A DNA stretch of 64,000 nt from Bispira polyomma. Lineage: Eukaryota. Each line of letters opens with the position of its first letter. The stretch's first letter is position 1. Made by a program: the position numbers and the translations under genes. Positions 1,898 to 26,275 of the stretch are shown here, one piece after another. The stretch covers positions 52,700,001-52,764,000 of the forward strand of contig OZ287752.1 of the NCBI GenBank assembly GCA_965649765.1, given 5' to 3'. The notes beneath the pieces are model-generated. The model searched no databases. It was not told the DNA's origin and was given only the letters and a program-made list of their open reading frames with translations.

Positions 1898-4800
1898 TTA
1901 GGCTAGGGCATAGTGCTGGCTGCTGGCTATAGATTGGTTCTGGTAGAGGTCTCCTGGTTCATACGCATAATGTGCATTGTTACTCCCACCACTGAAGTAG
2001 TTGGTCAGATGCATCAAAATATCGTCAAACGATGGCCGTTGGTTTGGTTCTGGATTCCAACAATGCATCATGATACCATCATAGCTAAGTTTGAGTAAAG
2101 AATATATTGCATGAATAAAAAACTGTAGTTATTAAGAAAATCACAGTATTAAAGTTTTGTATACATATATACATTTTACCTTATCAGAATATGTAATAGC
2201 GAATAAGAAGACTAAATATGTATCATATAATAAATAAAATAGAAAGTTTGTGATGGCCTTTGATTGGCCGTGTTTAGAATTGTCTTCCTATTCGTCTTTG
2301 TCTTCTCATTTTCTCGCCTTCGTCTTCTCAACTCATTTTTAAGAAATGACAAAAACATTGCAAATGAAAATTTTAAATTTTAAGGCATTTTAAATACTCT
2401 GTTCCACTTAATATATAAATATTGTGTGGGTAATAGACTTTATGGATTTACAGTTTTATATTCATCATATGGGTTAGTTTACAACACTGTACTGTCAATT
2501 TTGCCTTACATGAATTCAGTGTAGTCAGGATCCTTTGGCAATCTGTATCCATTCTTGACTTGTGCTGTCATTTCTTTATCTGTCATGTCACCATAAGGTG
2601 GCTTACCTGCAAAAATAAACATATTGTATAATTGCATTTCACAAATGTACGAAACATTTACATATTTTTTTAGCAACGTACAGTTTTAGAACTGGTCAAT
2701 CATGTTTAATATACCACAATTGAGTTTTATGCCTTGCATGTCGATGTGAGTCTATGGTCTATGTGAGCTATACTGTTGTATTTTTAAAACATGTACTTTA
2801 CATAAATTGTGTAAGGGTATTAGAAAGTATAAACAAACACAGCAAAAACATTTGAAGGTGTGATCAACTTCTTGTTTAGATGGCATGGATGTAAATATAT
2901 AAGTACCATGGTATCAACTTGGGCCATATTTCATGGGGCATACACATGTACATGTCACCATTCATTTGCATAAATATTGCCAAAAGGAACTCAATTATAG
3001 AGGCAGATATTATATTTTCTCTATACACAGAAACATAAGATTTGTAATGAAATTCAGTGTAAGATGTTTTATGCATAAGTGAAAAAAAAATATAACAGGA
3101 CACGGCTGTGTTTGCAATTCTGATTGGTTCAACGGTATGGTCAAAATAACCATATACAGATTGATGGGATAAGACTAATTTCGTCTGTAGTATACTTGAT
3201 TCCTAGTGGATATAGTTCCTTGAATAATTTTTACAGTATAATGAGCTGGAATCATGTAATAATTTGAATTTGTCATGTTAGAAAGGAATAACACATTCTA
3301 AAGCACATGACACATTGTACGGTAATTGTTACCACTCTTGAACATTATCTATATTTATACCTTTAGAGTACACCTCATGCAGGAATATGCCATATGACCA
3401 AACATCAGTCTCTTTGGTGTACAGACGTGCCTTGCCTTTAGCTCTGTAGAACTGTTCTGGGGCCATCCACTTGAGTATTACTCTATCCTATGGGTTATAT
3501 CAGCCAAAATACATGTACCATATGTTGAAAATGCTTGCATCTGCAGTAATAGTATTTGCACAAGGTACTGAAATTAATTCATTGAGGTAACACAAATGGT
3601 AAATTTTATACACATTTAGAATGAATAAATAAAATGTCAACAAAATTACACCCTTGTTTATTAAGAAATACTAATGACAATTATACTTGGTGATCCTACG
3701 GACTATTTGATTCTGGTATGTATGAATTGTTTGTTCTGCTTATTGTACATGTGTAAAGGTAAATAAATAATAAATTATATATTGGGAATCTAGGAGAAGT
3801 TAATGCTGAGAGATCCAGAAGGGTGAGAGCTACAATACAAATAAAAACTAAATTGCGGAAATTCCATGCAGTACATACTCCTTTATGTTCATCAATGTCA
3901 CTGGCTTTATCTCCCTTGGCAGGTCCAAAGCCTGTGACTTTAGCCACATAACGGCCTGTTGTGTCCCTGGTGAGTAGGACATTCCTTGCTCCGAGGCGTT
4001 TGTGTATTATCTACAAGGAAACACAGAATGTAAAATTAGCTAGAGATCTCAGTGGTTTTTCAAATACTCAGATCAACCCACACATTATGATATAGAATAT
4101 GTCTAGTGATATGTGACTCTTTGAAATTGGTAGGATTTAACCTTAACTATACTTTTCACTTTTATGATACTCTCCAAAGATATCTCACATGGTTTGTCGA
4201 ACTTGCATCCAGTGGCTGCATAATCACTAATTAAGTACTTCTTAGTATTTTAAACATTTGCAAGTAAAACAGTACTTTTGGCACCACCATTGTGGGGTTG
4301 AATAATAACTTTTACTGTAAAAAAACATAATATGAAATACATTAATACTGTAATATATATGTACCAAACATATAATGTAATGAATAGTTCTGACTACTTA
4401 ATTTAAAAGAAGTTTGACTCCATAATACTGTGGTAAAAAAATCGGCTGCCGTTGAAGTCAATATTTAGTCAATAATGTAAGCTCATTAAATTAAAAATCC
4501 TTGTGTTTTTTTTTAAAAAGTGCTATGTATTAGGGAAAATGTTACCTCATTCTGATGCAAGTGACTCATGCCTTTGGCCACTTGTTCTGCAAAGTTGTTC
4601 ATCTGGTCTTCTATGTCACTGGTAATCTTCTCTACCTTCTGCAGCCATTTGAGTAACTTTCCCTCTTCACAGTACTCCAAAATGATCATAGGTCCTGAAA
4701 ACAGTATGCATATTTTAGCTCCCAAAAGATAAATAAATTAGAGAAATGAATACAACAGCAACAACAACCAGATCTCAAGAAAATTTATGCGACATTTTGA

Positions 4801-6787
4801 GACATAATTTGTATAATCTACTTTGGCATTTTTCTTTTAATCACAATATATAACTTATAAAAATATTATATTACTCTTCACAATTAACTCGTGTAATATA
4901 ATTTAAGTCCTTCAAAATAAAAGATAATAACTTCCTGATACAAACTAACCTTACTCTAGCTAACATAGATTCGACAGACTACATTTATGCAGGAAATCAC
5001 AAAATCACATGCAACATCAACCATCATATTCCATGCGATATTTTCATTAATAGCACCAGCCAAATGTTTTTCAGCAGTGTATTTACCATGGTTGGTTTGT
5101 CCTAGTTATTATGGAGTTGGTCTGTGGAATGTCGTGTCCCTAGTTCAACTCCTGGTACAATCACATTAGCTACTATAAATGATATCCTTGCACATGATGT
5201 GAAGACACAATCACCTCCCCATCGACAACTACCACTATGTTGTACGACTATCTCTTCTTGGCCCTCTAAGGAGCAATGTTATTATCTATTTATCTATCTT
5301 GCTGTTATATCACCCAAATAATGTAACATACGACACTATTGACCGTATCTTATTACTATTTTTAAGCACAAATATTTTCATGAAAACTTGATCAATTGAT
5401 AGTAATATTCACAAGTGAAAATATGGATCGAAGTATGGACAAAGGTTTTTTAAAACTATATGTAAAATACACATGCTATAATGGAAATGTAATGGTGAGA
5501 GGAAAATATAAGTATAATCGGTATTAGCAGTGCAAAACCTGTGATTTCATTCATTTCACATATTATTAGTAATATTATTATGAATTTTTAACGTGCTTCA
5601 TTGATGCTAGGCAGCTTCTAAAGCGCAACAGCAGAATCAATTGTCCAATCATTAAGTCCAAAGAGATTGCAAAGCCGTAAGAAAGGAAGTGGGAGCGTGC
5701 ACAAGGGAAGCTAAGGTGGGTGTGCAAGCTTAAAAAGATAGTTTTTCAGCTTTTTCCTAAAATTGATAAGTGTGTCAACTGATCCGAGGTCGACTGGGAA
5801 ACTATTCCATAACAGTGGAGCTGCAGTGGAGAACGCTCTGGATCCCGCCTTCCTGACTAAGTTTTTGGCATTTTCAGAAGGTAGTATGTCTTTTCCCAGC
5901 AGGGAGATGGGAAACGAATGTTACATTAAGTCTATGTTGCTGCATTGCATATGTGGCTGAGAGGTTAGAATGTTCGACTTTGGATCAGATTGTTCCAAGA
6001 TGGATCCTAGCTGCAGGTCAGGAAAAGTTAGTTTAGGGCAAACTATTTCACACAAGGTTGAGTAATGGGCAACCAATGGGTGTTAGTCCTTGCATTGTAT
6101 GTGGGAGCTGGGAGTGCACAATACCTACAAATGAGTAAATATACCTTCAGGTGGAGGTACTGCAGCTATGTACTTTAGGATATTTTCATGTGATGGCACA
6201 GCACTAAGGAACGACATCTTCGCCTCCATCAAAGTTTTATCCTTGTCTGTGGCACCCACTATGACGTCAGAAAAAATGATTTACGACAAATTATGTTACT
6301 ATGTAAATACTGAAGAGAGAAACTAAATAGAAACTGGTGCTGCAAAATGTGCAGATGTAAGGACAACTGCTATCACACTTTCACATGACATTAGTTACAA
6401 AGCCTGTATTTTACCGTGGCATTATTCTTGGCTTGACAATCCGTTCTGTTCTTTTTACTGTTTCATGCAGTTTAAGTTAGCCTATGACTTATATGCTAAT
6501 CAGTATTTATTTGTGTCTGATAAATTACTTACTTATGTGTATTGCTTGCTCATAGACTGAAATTCAAAATAACAGAAATGATGAATAGCGCTTTGAGTTT
6601 AGGAAGACACAGTACTAGCCCACATTAATAGTACAGGATATGACACAAAAATATGCCTACCTTTATTTACTTTGGCCACTACATCAATTGAATTTCTTGA
6701 CTGTTTTAATTTTGCCTTCAGTATCTCAGCAAACATCCCTTTGGCCAAAGGTAAGGGATCGCCCAATGCAACTCTGTCATTAGTCAA
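1898..6787 (-). CDS. Tyrosine-kinase-fold domain and C-terminal tail (exons 20-26 of the receptor)
   Basis: LAKGMFAEI (G-loop), VVAK, HENILKY, IILEYC, VAKGMSHLH, IIHKRLGARNVLL, AKVTGFG, KWMAPE, TDVWSYGIFLHEV, GKPPY, GYRLPK, MMHCWNPEPNQRPSF. Confidence 0.93.
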
Positions 6788-9700
6788 CTATGTTAATAAA
6801 ACAAAACCAAGATAATAGTACAATAATGTGATTTTGAAGGGTGTTATAAGTTTTTAGCAGCACAACATTAATCATTAACAGCAGTCGGGTCTAACATTTC
6901 TTTGGCTGTTAATGATTAATGGAGTGCTGCTAAAAACTATAACGCCTGTACAAAATCACGTTAATACTATTACTATGAGATAAAATAAAAAGCTGAAAAC
7001 TGATATAAATCCTGATATTTATTGTATAAATATTTCAAATAACAACTAATACATTAACTAATCTTAACAAGCTAAACATGTCTTCTTATATGATATGTCC
7101 ATTTCTCATTATCAACATCACTTATTACCAAGGGTAATAACACAATTGTTAAATGTTAAATTATTAAATCATTTCTTCGAGCTAAACTAATTATCATAAC
7201 ATTTCTAACCTTTCTGTTGTGACATATAAGGGTATTGATCGTGTGAATGAAGACATAGTGTATATAATAACTAAAATGACCTGCAAAACCACAAGGATTG
7301 ATCACTTGCTTGATAGGTCAAAAATACGGTGCTATGTACAAGGATGACTATATAAAATATGACGTCAGTGGTGAGCTGTTAATCCTTCAGCATTTCATTA
7401 ATGCCTGGCAAACTCGGAATTACGATATTTTAGAATACATATAAATTGTTGTTAACCTGCTAGTAAACGGCCGTCTATCTAAAAATAATAACCATTAACA
7501 GCCAAAGAGCAAAATCATGTTATTACTATTATTATGGGAAAAAATAAAAAGCTGAAAAATACTATGAATCCTGATATTATACTGTTTTTTTGTGTAAACA
7601 ATTCAAATAACAACTAACAAATTAACTAATCTTAACAAAGTCTTTTCATATGATATGTCCATTTATCATTATCGACATCACTTAATATTACCAATGGTAA
7701 AATTACAATTAATGAATGTTCTGCCCATTAGTTTTTATAAATAACCCTTTTATTTCCCCATGATGTCAGAGGTGAGCAGTTAATTAAAATCACTTAATAT
7801 TACCAATGGTAAAATTACAATTAATGAATGTTCTGCCCATTAGTTTTTATAAATAACCCTTTTATTTCCCCATGATGTCAGAGGTGAGCAGTTAATTAAT
7901 GGTTCAGACTTTTTATTAATGCCCGAAAAAAAATCGAAATTAAGGTATTTTGGAATACATAAAATTGTTGCTAACCTTTTAGTAACGCCCACCTATCTAA
8001 AAATAATCTATAGTAAAATACATAAACGGAACATTCATCCAATTGGACTTAACCTCTCCAAAAACTGCTTGGCAGAATAAAAAAATATATTGTGTGTGAG
8101 TTGGTGTATCTAGTAAAAGTGTAACTCATTAAATATTGATATGAAACACTAACACCAACAATGTATACATGTTTATGAGATCACTGTATTTGAATCAGTT
8201 CTCAATATTTGATTTATCATTCCTTTATGCTGAGTTTTATATTTAGCAGAGGCTATGAAAATGGTTGTAATTCGAATAGTCATACTAATTTTTGCACTGA
8301 AAATATAACCTATTTTTGTAAGTTTATCAGGACAGTTTAGTCTTTATATAGATTGACAGATAACTAACAGAGAGCCATATCTAAAACCATATAATTTACT
8401 ATATATGTCATTTATGTTATCTAGTACCTTCCACTCTATAGCTCCTATAGGTTCTGCACTATCATATGAGTAAAAATTGTCTTCTGTCTCCCCATCATAG
8501 GCAACCCTGTATGTCTGGAACATATTGAGAATACTGGCACAATGAGATGATATACAAGTAGGTTGTTCCAAAAAGTAAAACAAGTTACATTATTGAAGCG
8601 TAACTTGCTATCCCAGTAATGATTGGCAAATATTTTTCATGAGAATATGGTAACGTTGGCAGTATACATGCTAAAGGCTGTTGGCTTACAAAGCACTGAA
8701 GCTTGACTATCTACCCTGCTACCCTTAATTTCTAACAACACTGAAGTGGCTCTTGTGATATGGCACACCAAATCCTTAGATCGATGTTAAATCCATACAA
8801 AATTAAAAAGACAATAATGCAAGGTTCTACAAGCACAACAGCAGAATCAGTGATCCAATCGTGTCGCCGTGGCCATAGCAAGGTCATAAAGACAGATGTG
8901 GGGTGTACAGGATGAATCTAGGTTTCGTAGGCAAGTTTAAAAAGACAGCTTCTAAGCTTTTTCCAAAAACCGAATTTTTTTTTCCGAAGTATATCTCTAT
9001 CTACTGATCTGAGGTTGACTAAAAGATTGTTTCATAACAAGGGAGCTGCAATGGAGAAAGTTCTTGATCCCACCTTTCTGGTGGGTCTAACAGAAGAAAC
9101 AGAGAGCCTATTACCTCTGTTCAGGTTAATAAAGGAGAGAAGGGAAGCGATTTAGGAGGGCTGTTGAGTGACTACCGCCAATTGTGTTAAAGTGAATTTT
9201 GAACAAATTATATAGTGAATGGGAGTCAGCGTATTGTTTTAGGTATAGAGTGATGTTGGTGTGACTGCCCAGGCCAAAAATCACCTCGCAAACCTGAAAG
9301 ACTTAAAATGTACCACTACTAACATTTTCCCAAGTTGTTTCTCAAACATATGACTGACCTTGACTTTTGTGCCATGCTCTAAAGGTTCATCATATTCATA
9401 AGGATTCCTCTGGTACACCCTGTTGTTTGTAGTGATGCTGCTGACTGCTTGACCTGGGTCACCAATTCATAAAGAAACTTTATAAAGGTTACCTAAATTA
9501 ATCTTATAAAGGGACAATTATATTGTATTTCCATTTATTTTATTATAGTATAGCAAAATAAACATAGAAATAAAATATTATATTTCAAATTTACTTTACC
9601 AATATAACTTTTGTATATTTTTCCTGCATATGTATAATTAAACCTTGTCATTTGTAACCTTCCTACACTCTAAAAAACTGACCAACAGATGACCATAATT

Positions 9701-12700
9701 TTATCGTTGTAAAGGATTTGTCGGGTGATCTGGCAGACTCCACCAGTTGCATTCCAGACAACAGATTAGTATATGAAAGTTCAACAGACAGTTGCTGCTA
9801 TTTCAAATACACACATATATATGGATTAAGAACCTCAAATACAACAACAACATTAATCATAAAAATCAATTAAAATTGTCTTTAGTATTGTGTTACAAGT
9901 AGCATGTTATCACCTAATCTGTGTTATTTACATTAAACAGTCAAATATTAATGTATTAGTCTTGTAATGGTTCTTAAAATATTTATTTTCTCTTTGTTCC
10001 GAAACCAAAATTATATAGTTACATTATTGAAGCGTAACTTGCTATCCCAGTAATGATTAGCAAATACTTTTCATGAGAATATGGTAACATTGGCAGTATA
10101 CATGCTAAAGGCTGTTGGCTTACAAAGCACTAAAGCTTGACTATCTACCCTGCTACCCTTGACTATCTACCCTGCTACCCTTAATTTCTAACAACACTGA
10201 AGTGGCTCTTGTGATATGGCACACCAAATCCTTAGATCGATGTTATGTATATATATATATATATACCGTTCAAAAATATATTTATTCAAAATTAACTTCT
10301 CCATACCAGGTTGAGAGCCAATGTGACTGTTCCTGCTGAGTCTGTTCCTGATGTTGTGGGTTGTGTTTCTCAGAGCTGGTGGGATAACATCTTTGTTGTT
10401 TCTCCATCTTATAAAGATCAATGTTGCCAGGACCATAGCAACAAGAAGTATCAAAGCACCTTGAGAAAAGGGGGAAAAATAGTGTATTACTGGAAATTAT
10501 TATTACATATTCTTGGATTAGTAAATGCATTAATATTTACATGTGCACACAGTTAAACACTAGTCTCCTAACATTGAGAAGAAAGGCTATATGGCCGTCA
10601 TGGTGAATCAAAATAAAAAGTATGAAGACCAAGACACAATATTAATAGGTCTATCAGTTTGATGTTTATTTTACCTTCATATGTGTACAGGTCATTACTG
10701 CTTGAGTGTATTTAGAGCAAACTTTATTACTAGTCCCTGAGCGAACATGGACCTTTTCATAAATCCACATGCTTACCTATTCCTGCACCTATCCATACAC
10801 CAATTCCAAGGTTGCTGTCACCACCTATAAAACAGGAGAATAAGAATTCTATCTTTAATTCTATCTTTAATTATATGGCAATATCATTCTTGTAACTTTT
10901 ATAACAAATCTATTAATTAATCCATGTGTGTGACTTTGCTGTGTGTTTTATTCATGATATTTGTTAGATCTAAACACATTCTAAATATAAACTTAATGTT
11001 TGTCTTATGCCTTGTTATTTCGTAATTGTTACGAATAGACAGTTTGATATTATTCCTATCTTAGGTATTAAATTTCTGATTTACATTGAATTATCTTATT
11101 TTGTATGTGTTTGTCTCATTGTCATGTTTACCATGTAATAATTTATGATCATCTGATCCTTATTTGAACATATGTACTTTTCAATATCCAATAATTATCC
11201 CACCTTCTGTGTCATCTAGTGCACCATGTCCATCATCCCCAGTCAGAAATGTCACTTTCTCAGTCCCTTCTTGTCCTCCTTTATAACTCAGCCTGACTGT
11301 TACTGTATACTCTGTTAAAGGTCTTAGTCCATCGATAGCGACTGATCTCTGTGTTGGTGGTACTTCTACTGTCTTGGTGTTGCTGCCTGCTGTATACACC
11401 ACTCCAACACTCAACGTAGTGTAACACACTGGGGCATACTGCCATGTGATATTCACTCTGTACACATTACTGGGGAACTCAATAACCTTTACATTCTGTG
11501 GAGGTGGATCTAGAAAAACAAAAACATCCTGATTTGTATAGCTATTGTGTATTATTACTTAATTTTATTAATTAAAAACAAATTAACATAGTATTTTAAA
11601 GGCTAAATAGTGACAAGTATTTTGAATGAATCCTCTGAGTGTTTATTACAAGTACCAATTTGTCGTATTGCAATGTATAATGGTGTTACACTATGCAAAT
11701 ACAAATTCCAAGGGTATACAGCACTTTCAACATATGTAAAGTAAGTAGGAACAATTATATGAAATAAACCTAAGATAAACTTTCATCAAAAACTTTGTTT
11801 CTTTGATTAATTTTATGTAGGCTTATTTAATTGTTGTAATGATGTGGAAATATATTTTTTTTTAATTTCATATGAAATGTTTACCAGCATGTTAATCACG
11901 CATAGTTTTAATTTACCGCAGTAAATATATACAATATTAAGTATGCTTACAATAGCCTATTCCTTTCAGGTTCTGTAAAGTTCCAATCTAGAAAACATAT
12001 ATTACAAAAACATTTATGTAATTGTTTTGATAAGTTGTTGCTTTTTAATTTGTGAATAAATCATTATACAATCTACTTTTTAGAGTGCAAGTTGAAAACC
12101 AGTTTTTTTGTGAAAAATAGTGATAAATGCTGAAATGAATTAAGAAAATTGACATCATTGTGACATAGAATATTTTACTCACTTATATGCCTTAACAAAT
12201 ATGCCTTATATTTAAAACATATTTGAATATGTCATCAAACGAGAGAATGTTGAAAATAAATCATAAAAATGTCTTACTTCATAACTTTCTGTAGACTGCC
12301 ATGACAATCCTGCACCATTAGCTACATTAAAATCTAATCTGAAGCTGTGTCCATCAAGGTCTTTTAATTCACAATTATTGATCCAAATAACCTGCTGGTT
12401 TGTGAAGCAGTCAGTATCAGGGACACAGTAGCATTCCCCACTGGTTGCACATGCACCACCCGTGGTGTACTGGGTGGAAAGTTGAAAAAAAGACATCATT
12501 GCATGACAATGAACACACAAAATTGTGTCAATTCTCAAAAGGGTACATTCATACCAATACAACATCACCTTTTAAACACTCAGTAGAGACCAGAGGCCTT
12601 AGGGACTTAACTTAGTCTTAAGGTTAAGATTTTTGTATTAGTCATGTGACAGTAAGAAAAATATCTTTGGTCGGTGTTAATTTTGCACTTAACAATAAAA

Positions 12701-15700
12701 CATGTGCAACTTAAATAAACTAGTCCTGACAATGGCGTGTTCTTTGAATAAGCTAAATGTATGCTTTGAATTGCTTTATAAGAATACTGTGGTAATAAGA
12801 ATAATTTTAGAAGCATTTGGTTATACATATTTCACCTTTGAATGAATCTGTCCACTTTGAGAGCCACTAAACACAATACTGTCAGTTCCTTGAAATGTAA
12901 TGTCATTGACACTGTAGTTGATCTTTTGTATACCACTCTCTCTATCTTCTACATGTATAGTTAGGCTATAATTATAACATTATAACATAAGTGTTATTCC
13001 ACCTGTACAATTACAAAGACAACAGGGTTTAATAGGTGGCTTAGTATGATCTTCTGTGGCATTAAAATATGTTTAACAAATACCCGAAATTATAAAAGAT
13101 CGAACTTGAAGTAGTACAATGTTTAAATAACTGTACCGAAATGCAGCCTGTATGTTTTAATTTTTTATAAATGAGAATGCATTATAACATCTTAAGGCCT
13201 CTTTATATAGCTTTAAAAGAAAGAAAAAAAAACAAATTGTATGGTTATTCTGTATATATTGAGTATTTCAAGTAAACCTGTATGTATAGCACATGAGAAA
13301 AAAAAACACCCCATCATAGAATTATTTAAACCAATTCAGGTTTCTAATACTTAATTTTACCAGCTATGGTAGTTTTATATGAAACTATTTTTATATCATC
13401 ATATTATTATCAATATTTGTGCAAACATCAGTATCAGCATACCTTGACATATAAGGCTTTCCAGATATTGTTGCATCAACATTTTGCGTAAACATGATTG
13501 TTTGATTGAATATGGCTGAAGAATCATCTAATCTGATCTTAAACTTCTCGCCCTGGTCAATAAAAGGGCAATGATGGTTAGAGTCTATTTTGAATATGTC
13601 GAACATTACAATACAACATTTGCTCTTTATTCTTTATATATTTTGATAGACTTATCTATATGACAGATTGTTTCACAGAAGAAGTTCAGTTTAAGAATCT
13701 CACCTTGCTGTTACCCACAATGTCAGTTGCCACTAGATGTAAATACATTACACTATTCCCTGAAACAGTGATAGATTCTTTGTGTTGCTGGACAGATGGG
13801 GGTAAAATAGTATATTGCCCTGGTGAAGGCTCAGATTCCTCACTAGTAAAGGCTATTCCAAAACGATTTATACCATGGGTATTTGAAATCTGGCTGACTG
13901 TTCTTAATCCATAGTTGTCATCAAATGTAACATCTGTACGTGGTTTTACTTCAGCCAAAAGATTGTTATCATGCAGAAAATTGTTCCTATATCTGAAATA
14001 ATAAATTTGTTATGTGCCCTGTATAAAATAATGTTATAGTTGTCACTCATTTCTATATACAAAGTCTTTGATGCCACTGATAGAAATTTGCTTTGCATTG
14101 GCTGACAGTTAGCTAGTCTTTTTGACAATAAACAACATTTAAATGATTAGTTTAAGTGAAACATTGCATTTTAAGTTATATTTGAATTTGGATATTTAAC
14201 GTTGACTCTAGTACCTTTTATTAGGTTATATTGGGACGGGTAGTTGGAAACGCTGGAGAAAACACTGCATACAGTCGGTCAAGGTTCTGCAGAGAAACCA
14301 GGGGCCCACAGTAAGGAACTACCACCTTTCCCATATAGGCATAGACTGGATTCAAACTCACGCCACCCAGAGGTGAGAGACCAGTGATTGTGAAGCGCAA
14401 TGCTTGCTAACTGCTAGGCCACCGCGGCCCCACATTTTAGGTTATCAAAAAAAAAAGAATTTAAGTTTTACCATATACCTATTTTTCCAGGTAATTGTTA
14501 CAGTTGCTACTGTGGTTGTAATCCAGTATGTAGAGCCGATCACTTTAGTTCCTCCTATCTGTACTGCGTGCTCGTCATCAGTGTCTATTCTACTGGTGTT
14601 GTCATGCAAGAATAATGCACGAGCCTTGACAATGTTGCCAGTATGGTCAACAGCTTCAAAAATGGCACTGTACATGCCTGTCGTGAGATTACAGTTGATA
14701 AATTAATTCATTTGTAGTCAGTTTTCAGTACGCATCTAAAACCTTATGGAGTCAGTACAGTAGCTTGGATTCAAAACAATAATTCTTCTTTAGTAAACTA
14801 AAGAGGCAAAAATCAATCTTTAGCATCAGTAAAAACCATTAGAAAATGATTTTGCTTGCCCCTGGTATAAAAATAAATAACTTATGGCTGTTCTGGTATG
14901 TGATTATCATAGCAACTAGTTATCTTACTTTACCTTGAACAAGGTCCTTCATTTTTGAAGACAAGTGTTTTACCTACCGTGCCCAACGTTATTTTTATAG
15001 TAAGAAAAATTGCTCTACTATTTTGTTTAACGATTAAAAGAAATTATAATGAAAATATATTAGGACAAGTATAATATTTTATCTTTACCCCAATTTAAAA
15101 CAAATTGTTATTAAATAGATTTAAACTATACCTGGATAATTAATATCTATGTAAGGTGACATAGCATCGACAGGTAAGGTAGCTTTTGTAACATACTCTG
15201 CCCTTTCCACAAGCAGACCAGTGCTGTCTACTTCCATCATGTAGACGGTGTACCTGAACTCTTCTAATCCAGAATCATTGTCAATCCAGCCTGCGAAATC
15301 TAACTGGGTAGTTCCATACTGTCACCATCAAAAGAAGAATTAATATAAACCAAACACAGTTTTTGCAGGCAATGTAAATGACAAGATTTTGTATTAACTT
15401 TTATCTCCAATACTCTATAAAGTGACTGTACATTGGTATTCTGGTTTAAATGAATGACCTTATGAATCCTCTCATATTACTCTGCATTCAATTAATATTT
15501 ATTCATCAGAGATTTCAGTATCACATTTTTTTAACCTTGGCTACAGACTTGGCTATAAACTGACAAGTAAGTAGTTATCAAATCAATGATTGCATATACT
15601 AAGCACATATTTAAAATGCTTACCTTGGAAACACCTGGCACAAATTCACATGCATACGGTTTATTAGCAGGGCATGTTCTGTCAGAAAGGCAATGTTTCG

Positions 15701-18700
15701 GGGGCTCAAGGTCAAATTTAATCTGAAAGTCATAAGTTGTTGTGCTTCCAGTAAACACCCTCTTCTCGACGTTATTCGAATTATCCACATATTCCTTATA
15801 GCCTCCAGATTGTGACACTATCTTCAAATTCAGATGGTCCTTGTGAGAGGCCACTGCGGTGTGTGACCAGTTGTATTTCTGGTTGTGACAATTTAGGGAC
15901 TTGTGGGGGTTGTCAGAACTGGGCTGATTTTGACCTGGACTGGTATCAATTATACACGGTATTTGCACTGGACCCCAGATCTGTACATTTGCTGTTAATG
16001 ACAAAACAGTTACAACATAACCAAAAATGGTATTTTATTATCCACTAGTTCTTGAAATGCACCAATTTGGTGTGTAATTCAGACCGGGAATAAGTTAATA
16101 TGGCGTATCACTCAGCGCCATTGTAAATGTATATGAAAACTATAGTAATTACAGGTTTTTAGTGTCAATTTGGCACAATTTTTTAAGGTAGTTGTCAAAA
16201 GTCTTTGACACAAAAGATGAACCTTAAACAACAAAATGGTATATTAAACTCGGTTTTAAGTGTTTTAAAAACACTAATTTGAAGTTAATTATTTATGGTA
16301 ACAATTCTGTACTTCTTTATTTACACTATTTGGGTGTGCCATGATCAAGACTGTTTCGTATGTTTTTGGTGGTTTTAATATTGTTATAGTAAGCAAATTA
16401 ATTCATAAACAGTTAAAAACTCTCCACATGTATAAAATATAAGCATTATGTAATGTTACTGCACATAAAACTATATTTTTAGTGCCATTTAAGTTAATGT
16501 ATAGATTGTATTTAAAGCTAATTCTGTAAATTGACAAATCAGTACTTTTGTAAATATTATATAATTGAATTTTCAATATTTTAGGACTTTTTCTGACTGT
16601 TTTGTATAATATTGTGACCTGTATAAGCATAATTACATTTTATAAATGGACAATAAAAGTAGAAGAACCCTTGATGTGTATCAGAAATATACAATTTTAT
16701 GTAGAAATTTAACCATCATTCATCATTACTGTAATTTTAAGTAGTTTACTATGTTTCCACTATCATTAAAAGATTAGCGATTATCCAATCTAAATCTAAT
16801 ATAGCATGTCAGTTTTGATTTCTAGTTACAGTGGTCTTTAAAGTGACAGGAACAATACACTGTACATACAGAGAGGCTCACTCGACCAACCAAATTGTTC
16901 ACCATAACCAGGTGGTTCTTTTTGGAGGTACTGAACGATTCACCAGTATCAAAACAGGACTATGAAAAAGTGTTCACTATAGGGAGGTGCTTTTCATTTA
17001 CAAGTGTCTACTAACAGGTTTTAAAACATCCATATTTTGTTTTCTGTCACTTTAGTGGAAAGTTTACTATACATCTCTATATGTTATTGTTTATAGCATG
17101 TTGCAAATATTTTAACAAATAACTACAAGAATGAATATTCAAATCACAGTGCAGAAGGGTAAAAATAAGAGATAATTATCTATTTAACAGTTGAAATTTG
17201 TAATAAAAATTAAAGTAGACTAAAAACTAAAATAATTATTAGATAAGTTACTTAGATTCTAAACCTACTCTACCTTTATTATTCATTGTCAACTCTGCAT
17301 ATGAGTTTATCAATCCAAATGGAGCGGCCACCATGTATTCACTAGGTAGAGGTGGTAGGTCACCAGGCAGAGGAAAAACCACCTCATAGCTCATCTCTAG
17401 CACACTGGGCAGTTTGGTATTACTGTAGAGAGATGGCTTAATTCCATACTCATCTGCCATACAATTGCCGTTGAAACTTGTAGTTGATTTCCCTGCCTCA
17501 TTCATTTGAAACTGGAGGCCACATGTCCTAAGTGAGCCTCCTTCTAAGACTGAATAACACCAACACTAACAGGGTATTACAATTACAGGTATATAAATAT
17601 ATATGTAGCATGTGCTCATGTGTCAAGTAATAAAATAATACCATTGAAGTATATACTCATTGTGACTGAAAGGACTTGGGAAATATGGGAGGAAGTCATA
17701 TATTTTAAATTTTGCAGCTAATAGATGGACCTGTTGACTTCAAATGTGACCTCAAGTATAATGCAAAGAAATAGATGTTTACAAATATAGTAATGATATT
17801 CCATTCAGACTAAGGTAGTAACATTTTTATAAATAACTACCAACATCACACATTTGCAGGACCCTGACTTAAGTTATTTATTGTAAACTTACTACACATT
17901 GCACCATTACTTAAAAAGGTTAATTAACACATGCTTACTCTTGCTACAGGATGATCCAGTAAATCCTGAACTACAGACACATTTGCCACTAGTAATGGAA
18001 CACGTACCAGGGTAGCAGTCATTGTTTACAGAACAGATTGCTAAAATACAGGCAATTGGTGACAATGTCATCACAACACAACATATATACTAGGTAAACA
18101 TCATTGAATTAAGTTGGGTGTTAGCAGCTTATATCATGACAACCAGATTAAACAGTGGAAGAACCAGTGCTGAAACACTGTAAACCACCAAAGTTTCCCA
18201 CATAAAAGAACAAACAAGATGCCAACCAACTGGTGAGAGACCAGTGATTGTGAAACATTCACTTCTACCCGCTGGGCCACATCACCACTAAATATCTGAA
18301 ATACAACATTATGTATGTACCCTTAGTAAACTGCATAGTTTCCTTGTAGCCATTTATGTTTTAATATGAACACATTTGGCCGTCTTTCCATTTAAAACCA
18401 TGATGGAATTCACAAATTAAATGACCCAATATGGCAGCTGTTGTACTGATAACTGGCAAAAGTGATAACAATTGTCTATCTAAATACTAACCTAAAGTAC
18501 ATGTTGAACCTGAGCTTCCTGGGCGGCAATAGCAATCTTGAGGTGCTATACAGACTGCATTATTTTGACAGTTGGTACACACAGCTATAGGTATGGTCAA
18601 ATATAAATTAACAAGTATTAACAGCAACTATAAACAATACAAATAGAGCTATACAGCACACCACCCTTAAAAGATACCATCATTTTTTATGTTTATAGCT

Positions 18701-21700
18701 TGACAATTTGATGCATATAAAATCTTTCAAAATGGAAAATAAGTTTGTCGATGTTTTCTATCTTGTTGCAGTATAAATCACAAGTTATGTTATAACAATG
18801 TGTGTGCAAAATCAGAAGAAGTAGCTATTTCGTACAGTCGGCATATGTAGTAGAACTGATCCAACATAGTTAAATAACTATTGTATATTGTGTACAGAAT
18901 TTTTCTGTAACGTAGCAAATATTGTCAAATGAAGATTTTCATTCACTGATACTTGTATTGTCACATTGAATACACATCCAACAGACCAACAAATATGTAC
19001 ACAGGTTCTATCCACACAACAAATAGAAAATGAATATGTCAGATGAGATGTTTGCACGCTGATAAAAGAATATATAGAAAACATACAAGTTACTCACGTA
19101 TGTCACACTGTGTCCCTGTGAAACCAGTACAACAGCCTTGTCTGACTTTTGCTTGGGCTTCGTAGTATGAAACACTTCTGTACTTAGTACAATGCTTTGA
19201 CCTCCTAGATAAAGCAAAATCAGTAACCTGAGTATGTTTTAGTAAAGCAATAGATATACCAGCAACCCCTTCGATCTTGCTTTAGTTTGCTATCCTTCAT
19301 AGTCATTAAAACAATTATATTTTTCTGCTGCTTGCCATTTTCATATTTATTAAAACAATTTGACCTGCTGCAACAGTCACAAATGCAGAATTAGGTCTAA
19401 ATCTTACTTCAAACTTTAGTTTTGATGATGTTGCACATGACAATGATGTCAACAAAGCAAATATGAGTAAAACTTCTTCAGCAACATTATTTAACCTAAT
19501 ATCGATAACAATACAATGTTACAACAATACACGATCCATTCTATTCACATAAAATCAAAATAATCAGAATATTCTGGAACAATATCTCAGTAACGAATAA
19601 ACTAAAAAAATCTGGTCATAAGGTTTTGTGCAAAATACCTGTACTAATTGTAATGCAAAGCAAGATACAAGAATTGTCCTTTAAAAAAGTATTTAGCACA
19701 CATTGTAAGTGACACCCCTCAATCTAACCAGGTTGATTGAAATCAATATCACGCCGTGCCTTTATACCAAAATAGATTTAATACAGACTGTAGCCTTAAG
19801 TCTTTACTTACCGACATCGGGACCAGCCCCAAAACCCACATGAGGTGTAGTAATAACATGTCCCCACATATGACTCTGATCTTGTCTTGCTCACAGATGT
19901 AGTGTAGTGAATGTCACAGAAACCACTACAACAACACAAAGCCATCATTATGTGTTTGTAGTTACTGGAAACTGTGGGATTTATTATTATTATTAATTTA
20001 TATAGTGCCTTTTTAGTTGGTCAAAGAAAAGTATACGATGACCATGACAGATAAAAATAATAGTACATCAAATGATTAAACAAGATATATATGTAAAGAA
20101 GAGATTGTAGAAAATAAAACTACCTCCCCTAAAATGTAGGTACGGTAGAGATAAGTCTTAACTGAAATAGAGTCGTTACAAGGACAGGATAACTCTGAAG
20201 GGAGCCGTACTGATCAGCCGATACACACTCACTTGCAGAGTTTATCTAACATGTTTGAAAACCTCTATAACATCCTCCATTGAAAAGAAATAAGTCTTTT
20301 TATCAAGAGATAAGTCGTTAGTGGGGTGAATCATACATGATAATGGCCTCCAAACTTATAATCGTTATATTGGGGGGTATGATCGGTATAGTTTAACAGG
20401 GATATTACATACACAGAAATAAAAGTAATCAAACAAACTATAGCAAATACAAAAAAATGAATAGTTCACAAATTGTAAACATTTGAACTAGCTTGATATA
20501 TTAGTCATGCTGCAACATACTGAAGCCTTTTTATCTGTTAAATGTTCCTTTTTTTGTACCAAGCAGTAGACCACAACAATAGTCTAATTGCGATATTACA
20601 AGAGCTTAAACTAGTGATTTATTTGCATCAAATGTCAGAAACTTTCTAATTCTATATAATCTTATTGATTGTTTTCATCAAAATATGCACCATGATTCCT
20701 AAATGAGAATACAAATTTAATTGTGCAGTCTCTAACTGTAATTTCGATGTAGGATGGTACTTTATGATATTTTCAATACAATTTTCTGAGGAACCACAGC
20801 AATAGAATTATTGTTATTTGGATTTAAAGAAATGTAGAGTTGACTATCCCAATCAACAAAAGCCAAATTAACATTTTAGCCTGGTTGTGTGAAGTGTCGT
20901 GCTTTGTGCTTTGGTACGGGATAAACAATCTGTACTGAAGTTCTCATCAAAGCCTATTTGTAGATATTACAATTACTTATATGAGTGCCTTATACAATCA
21001 GCTACACAAAGTTCTTACATATGAAGAACGACAATTACAGTTTTGGGCAAGAGATCAACATATTTCTTATTATTGCGAAAAAGGTGCATTTATTTGTGGA
21101 GATGAGACCTGCACATATCGAAAGGTTCAGAATAACCAATCAATCCAACTTTATGATAGTTTGCCATTTGTTGGTTAAAGTTCAGAACAATTGATTATAT
21201 ATTGTTGCTGTGTATATAATCAATTAGTTAGTATTGCATAAAACATACCTGCATGATATCAAGACCACATGTGCTCAGTTCGTCAAATAATAAATCAAAA
21301 GTAAATATGAGGTTATTTTATTAGCATTGTGTGCATATATAGTAAAGGTATGTTAATATTTTATGCCAATAGCCTGTGTCTATTCTAATGTTATACCGAG
21401 AGATAGAATTCTAAACAGTGAACTATGTGATCTCAAGTGTTTATATCCACATGTACACATCCACACAATTAAAGAAGATAGAGTCATATTATTAAAGGAT
21501 TTTTTTATAATTTTAATATTTTATTTTGCATAACAAGACATAAAAATGTTTTTACAATACATACATAACAAGTTGTACAATTTTCACGATCTTACATTTA
21601 CACACATATTAAATAAACAAAGAGACAGATATATCAGTGTTAGCAGATCAACAAGTACTAATGTGATGCACAAACTATGATACTCAGTAATTAATAATCA

Positions 21701-24700
21701 GGTGAATCTAATTCCCGATTTGGTGCCATTCTTTTCAAGATTACGTTAACATTTTTTAACAAATAAATGAAGTTTTGAAATGACAGGTTTTTATTTTTAC
21801 TTCCTTGTTTGTTGGTGAAATGTGTTGCTAAAATGAAGACAATTTTTTTCCAGAAGTTTGCATTCCAGCAGTGTAAGACAGTATGAACACTTTTGCAGAT
21901 GATGGGGGGGCCTCTAATTCCTTACCTAAATATTATAATTTAATGTGTAAAACTTTATACTAAGAACATTGCATGTATGCTTCTTTTATCACTATTATAT
22001 ATTTCTAAAAAGTGGCACAGGTTTCTACTGACATTGGTGGCTTAGACTGTATTCTTTTTATTAGATCATTATATGTCATATTTGATGCGAGATTGCAAAG
22101 GGGCACTAGTTTGATATTAACCTTAATTTGAATTGAATTAGTCAACTGGTTTACAGGCATAACAATTGATTGGAATCGAGCTAGTCATTTGATTTATATT
22201 TGCATTGAATGTCATATTTACGTTATTTTTCTTAAAAATTTCACTATTGCCATCTAAAATATCCATTATTTTAATATTGTACCTGAGGTGGTTAAGATTT
22301 CACGAAATATGTCTCTACTTTTCTCTCTTTGCTATGGTTATGTTTCTGTTATAAATGATATATTCGTTCAATACTTTCTCATTTTCAATTAGGTCAGAGT
22401 TTAGCACAGTTTAGCACAGTTTAGCATGACAGTTTAGCCTGGCAGTTTAGCCCAGCAGTTTAGCCTGAAAGTGGGGCCTGGAAGAGCACAGGACTAAAGC
22501 TTATTCCATTCGCACATCCATTCGAGAGGGGATGAAGTTGTAAGTGTTTAAGCAATCTAAGTTTACAGCCAACACAGAGACCCACCACAATAAGGACTTG
22601 TATGACAAGGTGAGGCAATAGTAAGACGATGCCAAGCAGATGCAGATGTGAGTTGCTACCGCACCTTCTGCCTCGAGTAAGTTGCTGATGGCTGAGATAA
22701 ATGATTTGCGCTTAGCCTGTTTCAGGAAGAGACATTTTAAATGTTAGGGGGTATAGAAGACAGACTGATGTTCTTATCAGGGCCTTAAGTAGGGCCATGA
22801 ACTGACCCACATTGGTAGTTGTAGTACATCAGCAACTCAGACTCTAACCACCCATTCTACTCCTGCTCCTCCTCATGTAGTGATGTGACCACAACCAGCT
22901 GTTGTTGTATCGATTCTATTCGTTGACCCTACTGGGTGTGCTCCAATCAGAACAGCTATTGCTTTGATGTAACTAGGGATGATGCATATAACATCAGAAG
23001 GTTATCTGCTTATTGAAAACTTAAGCACATGGTGTTAAGTCAGTTTAATGCTGTAAATATCCTAACCCTGTAAGAATCTATTGTCTCATCTTAGATCCAG
23101 CAAGAAAAAGCGGACCTTGATGATTGGGAGTCAGAGAAGGAAAAACGAAGCCAAACACAATGTAAATATCCATACCCAACCTTTGAGATACTGTGTGTAT
23201 ATGTAAATAACCTTGATAAAAATGTGCATACTTTAGCAATAGTAAATAATTGTAAATAATCGAAGAAACATAGCAGTGATACTTGGAAGTGAAAGGGATG
23301 ACACGGGAAACAATGGGGGGCATGAGTGGCTCTATAATAAGCTTGATCCACTGTATAAAGACACTCAGAAGAAGGTCATGCTGTGGGAGTCGTACTGCTC
23401 AACCAAGGGATTGGACTATGTAGAAGTGATGAAGTGGGTCACATCCCAGAGGACTATATTTGGCAAGCTGAGTGTGCCCAAGTCTGAACAAGCTGTCTCT
23501 GTAAACAGCTGCGACCAGTCCTCTGGGGTGGTGGGGCAGTAGAGGAATTTCTACTGGAATTCGTTGATGAATGCCTGGCAAACCTCGGGAACAAACGTGG
23601 CGATGGTTGACCTCCCCACCCGGATTGCTTACTGAAGTGAGGTGTACGACTCCCTAGTCGCCAAATGTCTTAAAGTTATTGCAATCTTCAGCCCAGGTGA
23701 GAGTGCCTTGCAGTACCAGGTCGTGTTTCTTGCAATCCTGGGGGCCACCCTCCAATCCAGTTCTTGGAAAAATTCCGGGGTCATCCTCAAAAAGTTCCTA
23801 TACGACCTTGTATCTTGTGCCTCCATCCGTGGTAGAAGTGCCGAGTAGTGACCGTGCTCCTCCCTATCCCTGAATGGATACCCAAATATAATAATTTGGG
23901 GTATCATGTTGCTCAGTTGACTTATTAATAAAAACTGTCTGGATTTTGTGTGTTCTCCCCCTATATATAGGGTTTTGGAGGCGAATTGCGCGGTTCTGTA
24001 CATCTCCCAATTGCAAAATTGCAAGATTTATGTCTTTGAGGTAGCGAGTAATCGGGATCGATGTACCAACCTATCGGGAGCGAGGTACCGACCTATCGGG
24101 GATGACAACGACCTATCTTTATGATCGCTCCGACTTATCTCTGTCAATCGGGAGGATTTTTTGGCAAAATTCCCAATCTGTCCCAATCTATCAGGCCTTG
24201 CTCCCGACCTATCGTAAGACTTGGGAACCATTACGATTATAGTCGTGCGACCTAAAATTTCCCGCCTTTTTTTTCCAAAATCGGGGCAAAATGCTTAAGA
24301 TTGCTCCCGACTGCATTATCAGGGTCTCCTCTTGATCGGTCGGCATAGTGTGACAGGGGCTTTAGGAATTACTTGACACTGTGTGACCCTAAAACTAACC
24401 CGGCCTTAATATTTTCACTACACATATTTTAAATTTATGCATTTTCTTACTTATCCCTGCAGTGGGTTGCTTTAATAATGTTTGTTTTAAAAGTGCTATT
24501 ATCACACTTGATTAAAATAGTTTCAATTCGAACCAAGTCACATATGATTTTTTTCAATCTTGCAAGATTTTCGCGGCAAAAAGTCATATAGTTTACCTGC
24601 AGAGTTCTCATGCCACCTACTCATCAGACAGTTCACTCTAAATTTATTTTTCAGCGTATATTGAAAGTTTATTCCTGTCTGTGCAAACTATGCCTAGTAC

Positions 24701-26275
24701 CTAGTCTGGATAAGTCTCGAATATTTAATAAATGTACTGATATATATATTGCTATATTAAACACATATATTTTGACAGTACAAAAACTTCTTCTTTAAAA
24801 CTTTAGAAACCTTGTATATTTATTTTCTTTTTAATTTTTCAAAATTAAATTGCTGCATATGTATTATATGTCGTTAAATACCTATTAAGGTGAATCTTAA
24901 AATGTATCAATCAAAATTAAATTTTAAAAATGTATATCATTTCAAAAGTAAATAATGAGATTAAGCCCACAAAAGTAAAACAGTGTAATTCCAAAATATC
25001 GATTACAGAATCTTTTTGCATTAAGCTTAAACTATTGAAAGACATACCATATTTGCTTTACTTCCTACATCTTATCACATAAAACTATTTTCAACACCAT
25101 TACGATATTGACTGAAATCTCATAATACTGATCAGGCAATCTGTGTAAAAATGAACCCCAAATATCAGTCACTATGCGAAATAGTAATTTTAGTTACTAT
25201 GCATAATGACCAGTGGTTTCAGGCATTATGCACATTCCCTAACCCCTAAAAAAACATAAATGGAAAAGGCGCAATGGTCATTACAAATTTATTTCTAATC
25301 TATTTTTCTTTTAGTTATATATTATTTGCATACTACTGTAGATATAAAATGTTAAAATGTACTTAGCCTGGGGTGCCAGGCCACCATGCACTCCAAGGTG
25401 AAACATAGTAGGGCATTATGCCCCAACCTGCCATTAGGTTATTATAATTAAGGTGTATTGTGATGATGCACAGTTCTTATATACATACAATATGTAACAA
25501 AATGTTATTGCAATTTACGCAGTAATGGTTAATAGCCTGTACTGGCGCAAGGAAAGTGGGAGCAGATGTGACAACCCACATGATTAATTTAACCCATTTA
25601 AGCCTGTACTGGCCAAGCCAGTTCAGCAGTAATGCCAACTTATTTATCTGCCAGGTTGAAGGCCTGGTCTGGCCAAACCGGATACCCATATGCCAACGTT
25701 TGACAAAGTTATAAAATGACCAGAATTTTGTGTTCACTGGTAAACATGAAAACACCCTGACATGTAAAATATATCTAGCAAAATGACTGAAAGTTGTACT
25801 CATTACGCGTCATGAATGGTTACACAGATTGACTGTAACATATATAACAAAGCATTCATTTAAGTATCATATTTAAGATTATGTACGTTATATGTATGTT
25901 ATATAAACATTTAATGCTGAACTTTTTTTATCAGGTAAATAATAACAAAATATATTAAAACAATTTTGTAATACCCTGTTACATTACTTAATCTGCTTCT
26001 CATTTATAAAAAAATAAGAATATTTTTCATTTACAGCTTTAATATTAATAAAAGTTATTTTATTGAAACTTTGTTTTGTATGTTTTTCAAACTTCTTTAG
26101 TTTCTTTGTTGACATGATGTCACAAATAAAATAATTTTTTTTAAGATATGGATAAATTTTATTGAAGAAGTCGACATTTTTAAAAAGCATAATTTAAATA
26201 TAGATCTAACCTGTAAACAACCCCAATGGAGCAGACACAAAGCAGAAATCCTACAAATACTGGTAAAACATCCAT
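1898..26275 (-). CDS. Single-pass EMI/EGF/FN3 receptor tyrosine pseudokinase, 26 coding exons, 1296 aa
   Basis: Exons assembled by hand, all GT-AG, total 3891 nt in frame: 26211-26275, 19812-19925, 19098-19204, 18492-18584, 17939-18040, 17274-17549, 15624-15991, 15132-15318, 14479-14677, 13704-13992, 13443-13552, 12836-12965, 12278-12469, 11951-11987, 11204-11509, 10777-10824, 10307-10459, 9359-9453, 8428-8514, 6661-6787, 6145-6258, 4546-4694, 3879-4010, 3361-3487, 2510-2606, 1898-2084. Signal peptide MDVLPVFVGFLLCVCSIGVVYS; TM GVWIGAGIGALILLVAMVLATLIFI followed by RWR; kinase motifs KWMAPE, DVWSYGI, CW..EP..RPSF. Confidence 0.9.
5575..5880 (-). mobile_element. L2-clade LINE 3' fragment (intronic)
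   Basis: Minus strand translates GSRAFSTAAPLLWNSFPVDLGSVDTLINFRKKLKNYL, the typical L2/CR1-group ORF2 C-terminus; related copy at 8800-9290. Confidence 0.8.
6811..8010. repeat. Composite intronic repeat: ~70-bp-arm inverted repeat, ~500-bp direct duplication and a near-exact ~111-bp tandem duplication
   Basis: Arms 6811-6882 and 6905-6973 are inverted; 6950-7500 resembles 7505-8010; 7677-7787 is repeated at 7788-7899. Confidence 0.7.
8583..8789. repeat. Intronic ~207-bp direct repeat, copy 1
   Basis: Near-identical to 10017-10245 (AGTTACATTATTGAAGCGTAAC...CCTTAGATCGATGTTA). Confidence 0.9.
8800..9290 (-). mobile_element. L2-clade LINE 3' fragment (intronic)
   Basis: Same family as 5575-5880: shared CAACAGCAGAATCA...TCCAATC 3' UTR and a decayed RxFSxAAPLLWN-type reading frame. 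Confidence 0.7.
10017..10245. repeat. Intronic direct repeat, copy 2 (extra internal ~22-bp tandem duplication)
   Basis: Matches 8583-8789; GACTATCTACCCTGCTACCCTT is present twice. Confidence 0.9.
11204..11509 (-). CDS. Fibronectin type III domain exon (exon 15 of the receptor)
   Basis: PPPQNVKV...VNITW...IDGLRPLTEYTVTV, phase 1-1 exon. Confidence 0.9.
14222..14431 (-). mobile_element. tRNA-derived SINE
   Basis: Minus strand begins GGGGCCGCGGTGGCCTAGCAGTTAG (A-box-like) ... GAGTTTGAATCC (B-box-like), then a TGGGAAAG...GGTTTCTC core. Confidence 0.75.
17939..19925 (-). CDS. N-terminal EMI domain and two EGF-like domains (exons 2-5 of the receptor)
   Basis: C..(SCGFWGWSRC)..CTKYRSVSYY..CCTGFTGTQCDIP is an EMI-like Cys pattern. 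CTNCQNNAVCIAPQDCYCRPGSSGSTC and CSVNNDCYPGTCSITSGKCVCSSGFTGSSC are EGF-like, each on a phase 1-1 exon. Confidence 0.85.
18105..18283 (-). mobile_element. Decayed tRNA-derived SINE
   Basis: Shares GGTGAGAGACCAGTGATTGTGAA with the 14222 copy and the CAGCACTGGTT..CCAC core with the 27254 copy. Confidence 0.65.
22397..22468. repeat. Short tandem repeat of (C)AGTTTAGC(A/C) units
   Basis: Six AGTTTAGC cores spaced 10-13 bp apart. Confidence 0.8.
23276..24361 (-). mobile_element. Internally deleted PIF/Harbinger transposon in receptor intron 1
   Basis: Minus strand: transposase N-terminus YRNFLRM..FQEL..V.PRI....T...ALSPGLKIAITLRHLAT.ESYTSLQ with stops. Convergent plus strand: MADF/Myb-like HEWLYNKLDPLYKD..KK..LW. 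TIR AGCCCCTGTCACACTATGCCGA ends at 24361 next to TTA. Confidence 0.85.

Follow-up and report, generated by a model that had tools for sequence, protein, structure and literature searches.

Receptor pseudokinases are known mainly from eight human proteins. As a rule, receptor pseudokinases work by trans-phosphorylation and docking of SH2 proteins (PMC13259870). In HER3 (ErbB3), the tyrosines phosphorylated in trans recruit SH2 proteins and the output is PI3K/Akt signaling (PMC13259870). Here we describe a receptor gene from Bispira polyomma, which lies in a stretch of 64,000 nucleotides (GenBank assembly GCA_965649765.1, contig OZ287752.1, positions 52,700,001 to 52,764,000 of the forward strand; hereafter, the window, in whose numbering positions are given). 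The gene is encoded on the minus strand (26275-1898) by 26 coding exons, which comprise 3,891 nt and encode 1,296 amino acids. The predicted protein possesses a signal peptide, an ectodomain, a single transmembrane (TM) helix and an intracellular domain of tyrosine-kinase fold, and is therefore classed structurally as a receptor tyrosine pseudokinase. By analogy with HER3, this intact single-pass receptor with a dead kinase domain probably acts as a non-catalytic scaffold, which is phosphorylated in trans.

The original prediction concerned the region 3879..6787, which corresponds to four kinase exons of this gene, and claimed that the kinase domain is dead at four independent motifs. We compared the receptor with the catalytic motifs of kinases listed in PMC13259870. 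Among the essential residues (VAIK Lys, HRD Asp and DFG Asp), both Asp residues are lost and the Lys is kept; the alphaC Glu is lost in addition. Most details of the prediction were correct. The catalytic Asp is replaced by Arg (codon CGC) and the DFG Asp by Gly (codon GGC), an alignment to the Glu of active kinases places Lys at the alphaC Glu column, the beta3 Lys is retained, the G-loop LAKGMFAEI has one Gly of three, and the activation segment contains no Tyr. A Glu two residues upstream of Lys1042 is not common to relatives. The C-lobe is also retained, with the APE Glu, the alphaF Asp and the alphaH Arg. In contrast, the activation loop is not short as claimed: it has a normal length of 29 residues from GFG to APE, as compared with medians of 30 for 43 active kinases (26-32) and 29 for 68 family rows (24-38). 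All four motifs are altered; however, their independence was overstated, because the changes are one inherited set common to the family. The G-loop is judged the weakest of the four dead motifs, because xxGxFA is almost invariant in the family (the middle position is Gly in 64 of the 65 rows that have a residue there). Because both Asp residues and the Lys-Glu pair are lost, established chemistry predicts that this kinase domain very probably performs no phosphotransfer.

The gene model is consistent with an intact gene. Exons 2-26 were placed by splice signals and phase, and exon 1 was identified through a search for a leader and through its conservation in the neighboring copy. All 25 introns are GT-AG, the reading frame is open throughout and the only stop codon is at the end, as expected from the earlier claim of 26 clean exons. 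An assembly error at the catalytic codons is not supported: read contigs agree, and identical states occur in paralogs and other species. The assembly and the contigs of three read runs (at most two samples from one study, possibly from the same source as the assembly) showed 0 differences across 3479-4625. These contigs contain no splice joints at the exons and therefore have no bearing on expression. The original prediction had considered transcripts with alternative HRD/DFG exons. No such exon was found in the genomic sequence of the minus strand from 1500 to 9000.

How does this receptor compare with the described systems? HER3 serves as a works-like model. HER3 and the window family have both lost the catalytic Asp and the alphaC Glu (PMC13259870). 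However, HER3 has DFG, an L/Cys-rich ectodomain and active paralogs, whereas the window family has GFGP and an ectodomain of EGF repeats and beta-sandwiches, and no active paralog of it was found. EphA10 resembles the receptor in GFG and the lost catalytic Asp, EphB6 in the basic alphaC residue (PMC13259870), and both in a fibronectin type III (FN3) domain close to the membrane. The beta3 Lys and the loop Asn, however, are lost from both Eph receptors and present in the window gene; moreover, EphA10 and EphB6 have active paralogs. EGFR-type, Eph-type, ephrin-binding and SAM domains were not detected by Pfam in any of the seven full relatives scanned. PTK7, ROR1/2 and RYK, the Wnt co-receptors, are likewise whole subfamilies without an active member. 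However, they keep the alphaC Glu and the catalytic Asp (PMC13259870), both lost in the window family, and their ectodomains are built from Ig, CRD/Kringle or WIF domains, an architecture that the window family does not have. Moreover, they are represented by one or two genes in vertebrates (PMC4898815), as against 11 kinase copies in the B. polyomma genome.

The list of known receptor pseudokinases in the original prediction left out STYK1 (NOK), a vertebrate receptor tyrosine pseudokinase, whose kinase signature is the most similar. STYK1 has an alphaC Arg, GLG, a catalytic-loop Asp and a 22-residue ectodomain (PMC13259870, Table 2). It thus resembles the window gene (Lys and GFG) in that the alphaC residue is basic and Gly takes the place of the DFG Asp. 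In contrast, the catalytic-loop Asp kept by STYK1 is missing from the window gene and the whole family, and the window receptor has an ectodomain of about 860 residues. Because the ectodomain loss of STYK1 in vertebrates is thought to be secondary (PMC4898815), the short ectodomain does not exclude shared ancestry. A search of the genome with a STYK1-type catalytic-loop pattern gave no match, which is uninformative. The best sequence and fold matches are the active receptor kinases FGFR, Tie, Ret, VEGFR and PDGFR, and database names such as "FGFR2-like" are explained by this likeness to the FGFR group. The intron positions and phases of the kinase domain (2084-6787) presumably also resemble those of the FGFR/Tie/Ret/VEGFR group. 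However, the window family lacks the catalytic motifs, the activation-loop Tyr, a long kinase insert and a Pfam Ig I-set hit. FGFR membership was therefore rejected, given the EGF and FN3 ectodomain, the lost motifs and the separate branch. Tie combines EGF and FN3 domains, in the order Ig-Ig-EGF3-Ig-FN3x3. This order differs from that of the window receptor (Cys module, two EGF, about five sandwiches), and the fold match to Tie2 FN3 is generic only (Z 12.6, root-mean-square deviation (rmsd) 16.6). Unlike Tie, which is an active kinase, the window kinase has lost the catalytic motifs.

Homologues were then considered. A first search with one ectodomain exon found nothing. A search with the catalytic exon gave 26 cluster representatives at E <= 0.001, 15 of which were read; one tubeworm match used as a query led to 161 longer proteins, 120 of which were listed. 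At least 59 proteins match the window ectodomain at E < 1e-5, with Ridgeia, bivalves and gastropods (Haliotis, Babylonia) as the named sources. None of 67 database kinase domains has the catalytic Asp (Arg in 58, His in 8 and Lys in 1). GFGP is present in, and the activation-segment Tyr absent from, all 67. The alphaC Lys occurs in all 64 rows covering that column, the beta3 Lys is kept in 63 of 64 covered rows, and the alphaF Asp and APE Glu are found in 69 of 69 family rows. A quick tree was built from 117 rows, without 16 that were short or redundant; in it, the 73 family rows fell on one side with a support of 100 in the Shimodaira-Hasegawa-like approximate likelihood-ratio test (SH-aLRT). 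Within the family, 17 rows (tubeworms, two unnamed and ten copies from the B. polyomma genome; 98) are separated from 56 rows (molluscs and unnamed; 93). When the G-loop, alphaC, catalytic-loop and DFG columns were removed, the support for the family clade was still 100/100. In this setting FGFR/PDGFR-like kinases form its sister group (90/89), in trees that contain no Tie, Ret, STYK1, Wsck, PTK7, ROR or RYK row; no search returned a STYK1 or Wsck sequence. The stem of the family is long (0.74 changes per site). Thus, the kinase phylogeny and motif survey that the original prediction had asked for gave one clade with family-wide replaced residues. Because the family is one clade in annelids and molluscs with shared losses, we judge that the catalytic losses are older than the annelid-mollusc split, and that the source animal of the window is probably an annelid. 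Six relatives lie on contigs of 1.9-4.6 kb that are hardly longer than their open reading frames (ORFs), and from these short contigs family members appear to be transcribed and spliced. In the ESM Atlas, the ectodomain matched unnamed mollusc clusters at 0.86-0.89; the kinase matches were all 0.97-0.98 and not discriminating, with a chordate "Cad96Ca" cluster at the top.

We found no description of the family in the literature, which was searched without subscription papers. The accessible part of PMC8662651 does not mention molluscs or annelids. In that of PMC4883820, "inactive" appears once, for guanylate cyclases, and one "Tenascin-X" entry, assigned to Tie at 29%, may belong to the family. 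A second pseudokinase family was observed in molluscs. Its members (P0104, P0118, P0120, P0124-P0126, P0129, P0130 and P0134) are cytoplasmic, with RING, SH2 and a Src-like kinase, in which the catalytic Asp is replaced by Asn and the DFG Asp by Gly. They are annotated as "SRK2/SRK3-like", form their own clade (SH-aLRT 100) and occur in a chiton, snails, bivalves and octopus. A common origin with the window family was rejected, as the two form separate clades.

The B. polyomma genome contains at least 15 matches to an ectodomain exon and at least 11 to the hinge exon. Nine of the 11 kinase copies form a tandem cluster on C5 (52.57-53.14 Mb) and two are on C1. The catalytic exon is present in ten of them, all with Arg or Lys for the Asp and all with GFGP; the alphaC residue is Lys in ten of the 11 and Leu in one. 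A motif scan of 119 loci, which together with the window span C5 52.52-53.29 Mb apart from 1 kb, revealed no canonical HRD/DFG exon. The original prediction had suggested a search for an active paralog with the same ectodomain; none was found in this genome or in databases. Three distant ectodomain copies (C1 19.9, C1 67.0 and C2 90.3 Mb) have no kinase exons in the stretches read. Two copies (C5 52568265-52576369 and 52587036-52592298; L020-L023) have all seven kinase exons, and no ectodomain or TM exons were detected upstream. They may be cytoplasmic forms or separated halves, and the ratio of nonsynonymous to synonymous substitution rates (dN/dS) between them is 0.22. The cluster also contains an open frame of 506 codons that includes a TM-like stretch (C5 52949950-52951470, minus strand; L080).

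Selection was measured by the Nei-Gojobori method with 1,000 codon bootstraps. Between the window copy and the nearest copy, dN/dS was 0.23 for the kinase (95% limits 0.15-0.37; 260 codons) and 0.42 for the ectodomain (0.34-0.54; 749 codons). Other copy pairs gave 0.24, 0.12 and 0.22 for the kinase and 0.39 and 0.54 for the ectodomain; distant pairs are saturated. The kinase-ectodomain contrast was reversed in 13 of 1,000 bootstraps for the window pair and in 93 of 1,000 for a second pair. Thus, purifying selection acts on both kinase and ectodomain, less strictly on the latter; a lack of such selection, which the original prediction had named as a refutation, was not observed. These data also bear on the idea that the window copy is a recent duplicate heading to decay in a cluster with several broken copies. 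In the nearest copy (C5 52620828-52665600; L026-L030), the 132-bp exon of the catalytic loop is missing, which is an in-frame loss, and so is an EGF exon. This copy carries mobile-element insertions, one of which (21.7 kb, with retroelement-like ORFs) lies at this site, and is probably damaged. Fragments occur in the window and on C5 at 40.8 Mb, and the window copy has lost the Met of a YxxM motif. However, all 26 exons of the window copy are open at a synonymous divergence (dS) of 0.29 from the nearest copy, both dN/dS values have limits below 1, and its own branch is short (0.016, as compared with 0.085 for the damaged neighbor). Therefore, we consider decay very unlikely. The invariance of the motifs, the single clade and the purifying selection support the earlier proposal of a selected pseudokinase from a poorly described invertebrate receptor family; this family is old, selected and apparently undescribed.

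Outside the kinase core, four Tyr columns are conserved among the 60 rows with a TM helix. The acidic juxtamembrane motif (YxYGxM) has Tyr in 57 and 51 of these rows, and the tail YY motif in 56 and 49. The second juxtamembrane Tyr starts YxxM in 43 of 60 rows; YxxM occurs at 61 of 939 other intracellular Tyr residues. Among the cluster paralogs read at this exon, three of five retain the YxxM Met (the damaged neighbor is not counted). An acidic Tyr context suits Src-type kinases, and YxxM is the PI3K p85-binding motif. The conserved acidic Tyr motifs suggest trans-phosphorylation and SH2 docking as in HER3, and because these columns are conserved around a dead kinase domain, a scaffold phosphorylated in trans is favored. 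If HER3 and other receptor pseudokinases are a guide, a ligand would bring about clustering of the EGF/beta-sandwich ectodomain. The juxtamembrane and tail Tyr residues would then be phosphorylated by another, active tyrosine kinase, which could be of Src type or a co-receptor but not a paralog sharing this ectodomain. SH2 proteins would dock on them, at a juxtamembrane site that is YxxM in most members, and the folded dead kinase domain would serve as a docking or conformational platform.

The dead kinase might instead be mainly an allosteric partner, or an inhibitor or decoy, of an active receptor kinase, with the Tyr residues being secondary. The stronger constraint on the kinase fold than on the ectodomain in the window pair, the existence of proteins from oysters, amphioxus and gastropods that share the ectodomain and have no kinase, and the allosteric activation of partners by HER3 (PMC13259870) are consistent with this idea. 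However, an active receptor with the same ectodomain was not found in genome or database searches, four conserved intracellular Tyr columns would be unnecessary for a pure decoy, and the kinase-ectodomain contrast is weak in the second pair. We therefore regard it as rather unlikely. A rebuilt site is also conceivable, in which the beta3 Lys, the alphaC Lys and the Arg at the catalytic position form a cationic switch pocket for a metal-free nucleotide, phosphotyrosine or an acidic loop or, in the extreme form, perform weak atypical catalysis. The replacement residues are near-invariant and not scattered, the hinge Glu/Cys/Gly persist in 66-67 of 69 rows, most activation segments carry a net negative charge (50 of 68), and EphA10, EphB6 and HER3 retain ATP binding (PMC13259870). 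However, 62 of 69 rows have Val or Ile instead of the adenine-roofing beta3 Ala, so that the pocket may be narrower, and the loss of both Asp residues leaves no base and no metal site for catalysis. Such a pocket seems improbable; except in its catalytic form, it is compatible with the scaffold model.

Several points weigh against the scaffold model and its basis. The receptor keeps the beta3 Lys and the catalytic-loop Asn, and kinases with non-canonical motifs have sometimes turned out to be active. The 67 database rows contain near-duplicates, and their collection started from a dead-kinase query. Recall was low in the search driven by the ectodomain (46 hits, with only 4 full family members returned), which may have missed an active receptor with this ectodomain. 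The dN/dS of the window copy leaves out the catalytic exon, which is absent from the neighbor. Finally, the window copy keeps both juxtamembrane Tyr residues without the Met of YxxM, and only one of the two tail Tyr columns.

The same ectodomain block was also found beyond annelids and molluscs. A protein of the hemichordate Ptychodera flava possesses this block (E 1.7e-37 across 601 columns) and a TM helix. Its kinase is dead as well: the catalytic Asp is replaced by Lys and DFG by SFA, and the alphaC Glu is kept. This kinase is sister to the family at SH-aLRT 87 when all columns are used, but not when the catalytic columns are removed; the approximately unbiased test rejects neither placement (p 0.446). 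Kinase-less proteins with the same ectodomain block are present in amphioxus and gastropods (P0153-P0158), and one kinase-less protein carries a C-type lectin domain. The oyster cluster members P0194, P0196, P0197 and P0199, of 892-910 amino acids, have no kinase motifs. Kinase-less proteins with the same ectodomain are possible decoy or secreted forms. Given the tandem expansion and the freer ectodomain, we lean towards a recognition role for the receptors. The occurrence in annelids, molluscs and a hemichordate is the basis for a broader reading, namely a bilaterian-old family without an active twin, in which an invariant cationic switch pocket, a recognition repertoire (immune or self/non-self) of ectodomains that are duplicated in tandem and evolve faster, and PI3K signaling via borrowed kinases are combined; we hold this combination to be doubtful.

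The features of the receptor are listed in Table 1. The layout is a signal peptide, a Cys-rich module, two EGF repeats, about five beta-sandwich/FN3 domains, a TM helix, a juxtamembrane region, a tyrosine-kinase fold and a short tail. The 21 residues of the leader are identical in the neighboring copy, where DNA identity is 79% across 304 bp. The Cys-rich module of exons 2-3 is one that we take to be EMI-like; a Pfam scan of exon 3 gave zero matches. Exon 5 matched EGF_Teneurin (E 4.3e-6) and EGF_2 (E 1.5e-4). The block of exons 6-14 (11951..17549) has no Pfam names, matches relatives in BLASTP with E down to 1e-98, and is predicted to fold as about four Ig/FN3-type beta-sandwiches. The TM stretch has a hydropathy of 2.8 across 19 residues, and the helix is also present in the model of a relative. 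It should be mentioned that the structure models are those of two tubeworm relatives (P0031 and P0151), not of the window protein itself. The kinase domain of the P0031 model matched FGFR1 kinase with Z 32.0 and rmsd 2.2 A over 277 residues. The AlphaFold2 model of P0151 (ectodomain only; predicted local distance difference test score 90.7) shows about five tandem beta-sandwiches, the last of which matched fibronectin FN3 (Z 13.7, rmsd 1.9 A). The fold searches pointed to no specific receptor for the ectodomain: multi-domain fold matches had rmsd >7 A and were generic FN3/Ig only, in searches that barely tested residues before about 370. Elsewhere in the window, intronic repeats of very high copy number are present at about 14180-14430 and 5570-5915 (summed contig depth 1e5-1e6, as against about 20 for unique sequence), and ORF pieces at 23648-23869 (minus strand) and 46445-46783 (plus strand) resemble what we take to be a Harbinger-type transposase.

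Table 1. Coordinates of the receptor gene and of a second copy in the window
Feature	Position	Strand	Remarks
Whole coding span	1898..26275	-	26 exons, receptor tyrosine pseudokinase; spliced by coordinates
Exon 1, predicted signal-peptide-like hydrophobic leader, residues 1-21	26211..26275	-	Phase compatible with exon 2
Exons 2-3, N-terminal Cys-rich module	19925-19812, 19204-19098	-	Mollusc relatives with similar N-termini
Exons 4-5, two EGF-like repeats	18584-18492, 18040-17939	-	Exon 4, Cys pattern; exon 5, Pfam
Exons 6-10, family-specific ectodomain block, first part	17549-17274, 15991-15624, 15318-15132, 14677-14479, 13992-13704	-	
Exons 11-14, family-specific ectodomain block, remainder	13552-13443, 12965-12836, 12469-12278, 11987-11951	-	
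Exon 15, membrane-proximal FN3 domain	11204..11509	-	Pfam fn3 E 1.4e-7, above cut-off
Exons 16-17, single TM helix (residues ~865-891) and basic stop-transfer stretch	10824-10777, 10459-10307	-	
Exons 18-19, juxtamembrane region with acidic Tyr pair, Y972 (8472-8470) and Y974	9453-9359, 8514-8428	-	
Exon 20, G-loop from 6748 and beta3 Lys1025 (6673-6671)	6661..6787	-	
Exon 21, alphaC helix, Glu replaced by Lys1042 (6220-6218)	6145..6258	-	
Exon 22, hinge and alphaD-alphaE, without long kinase insert	4546..4694	-	Pfam PK_Tyr_Ser-Thr E 5e-7; alignment
Exon 23, catalytic loop Arg1121 (3998-3996), Gly1143 (3932-3930), Tyr-free activation segment	3879..4010	-	
Exons 24-26, C-lobe and tail Tyr1274 (1969-1967)	3487-3361, 2606-2510, 2084-1898	-	Pfam and conservation
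5' fragment of second, divergent copy, five ectodomain exons	41731..44204	+	TM/kinase exons downstream not found

The window gene thus belongs to a family that consists of pseudokinases alone, has an ectodomain and a fixed set of replaced residues peculiar to it, and has multiplied in annelids and molluscs. The family is present in farmed oysters, mussels, scallops, clams and abalone. Database entries label its members "uncharacterized" or name them as FGFR, Fer, Kit or Eph kinases. Because of these kinase names, expression studies may misread the family as an active growth-factor receptor. The family is a natural setting in which to ask how a dead kinase can be put to use when there is no active paralog, and why the ligand-binding half diversifies.

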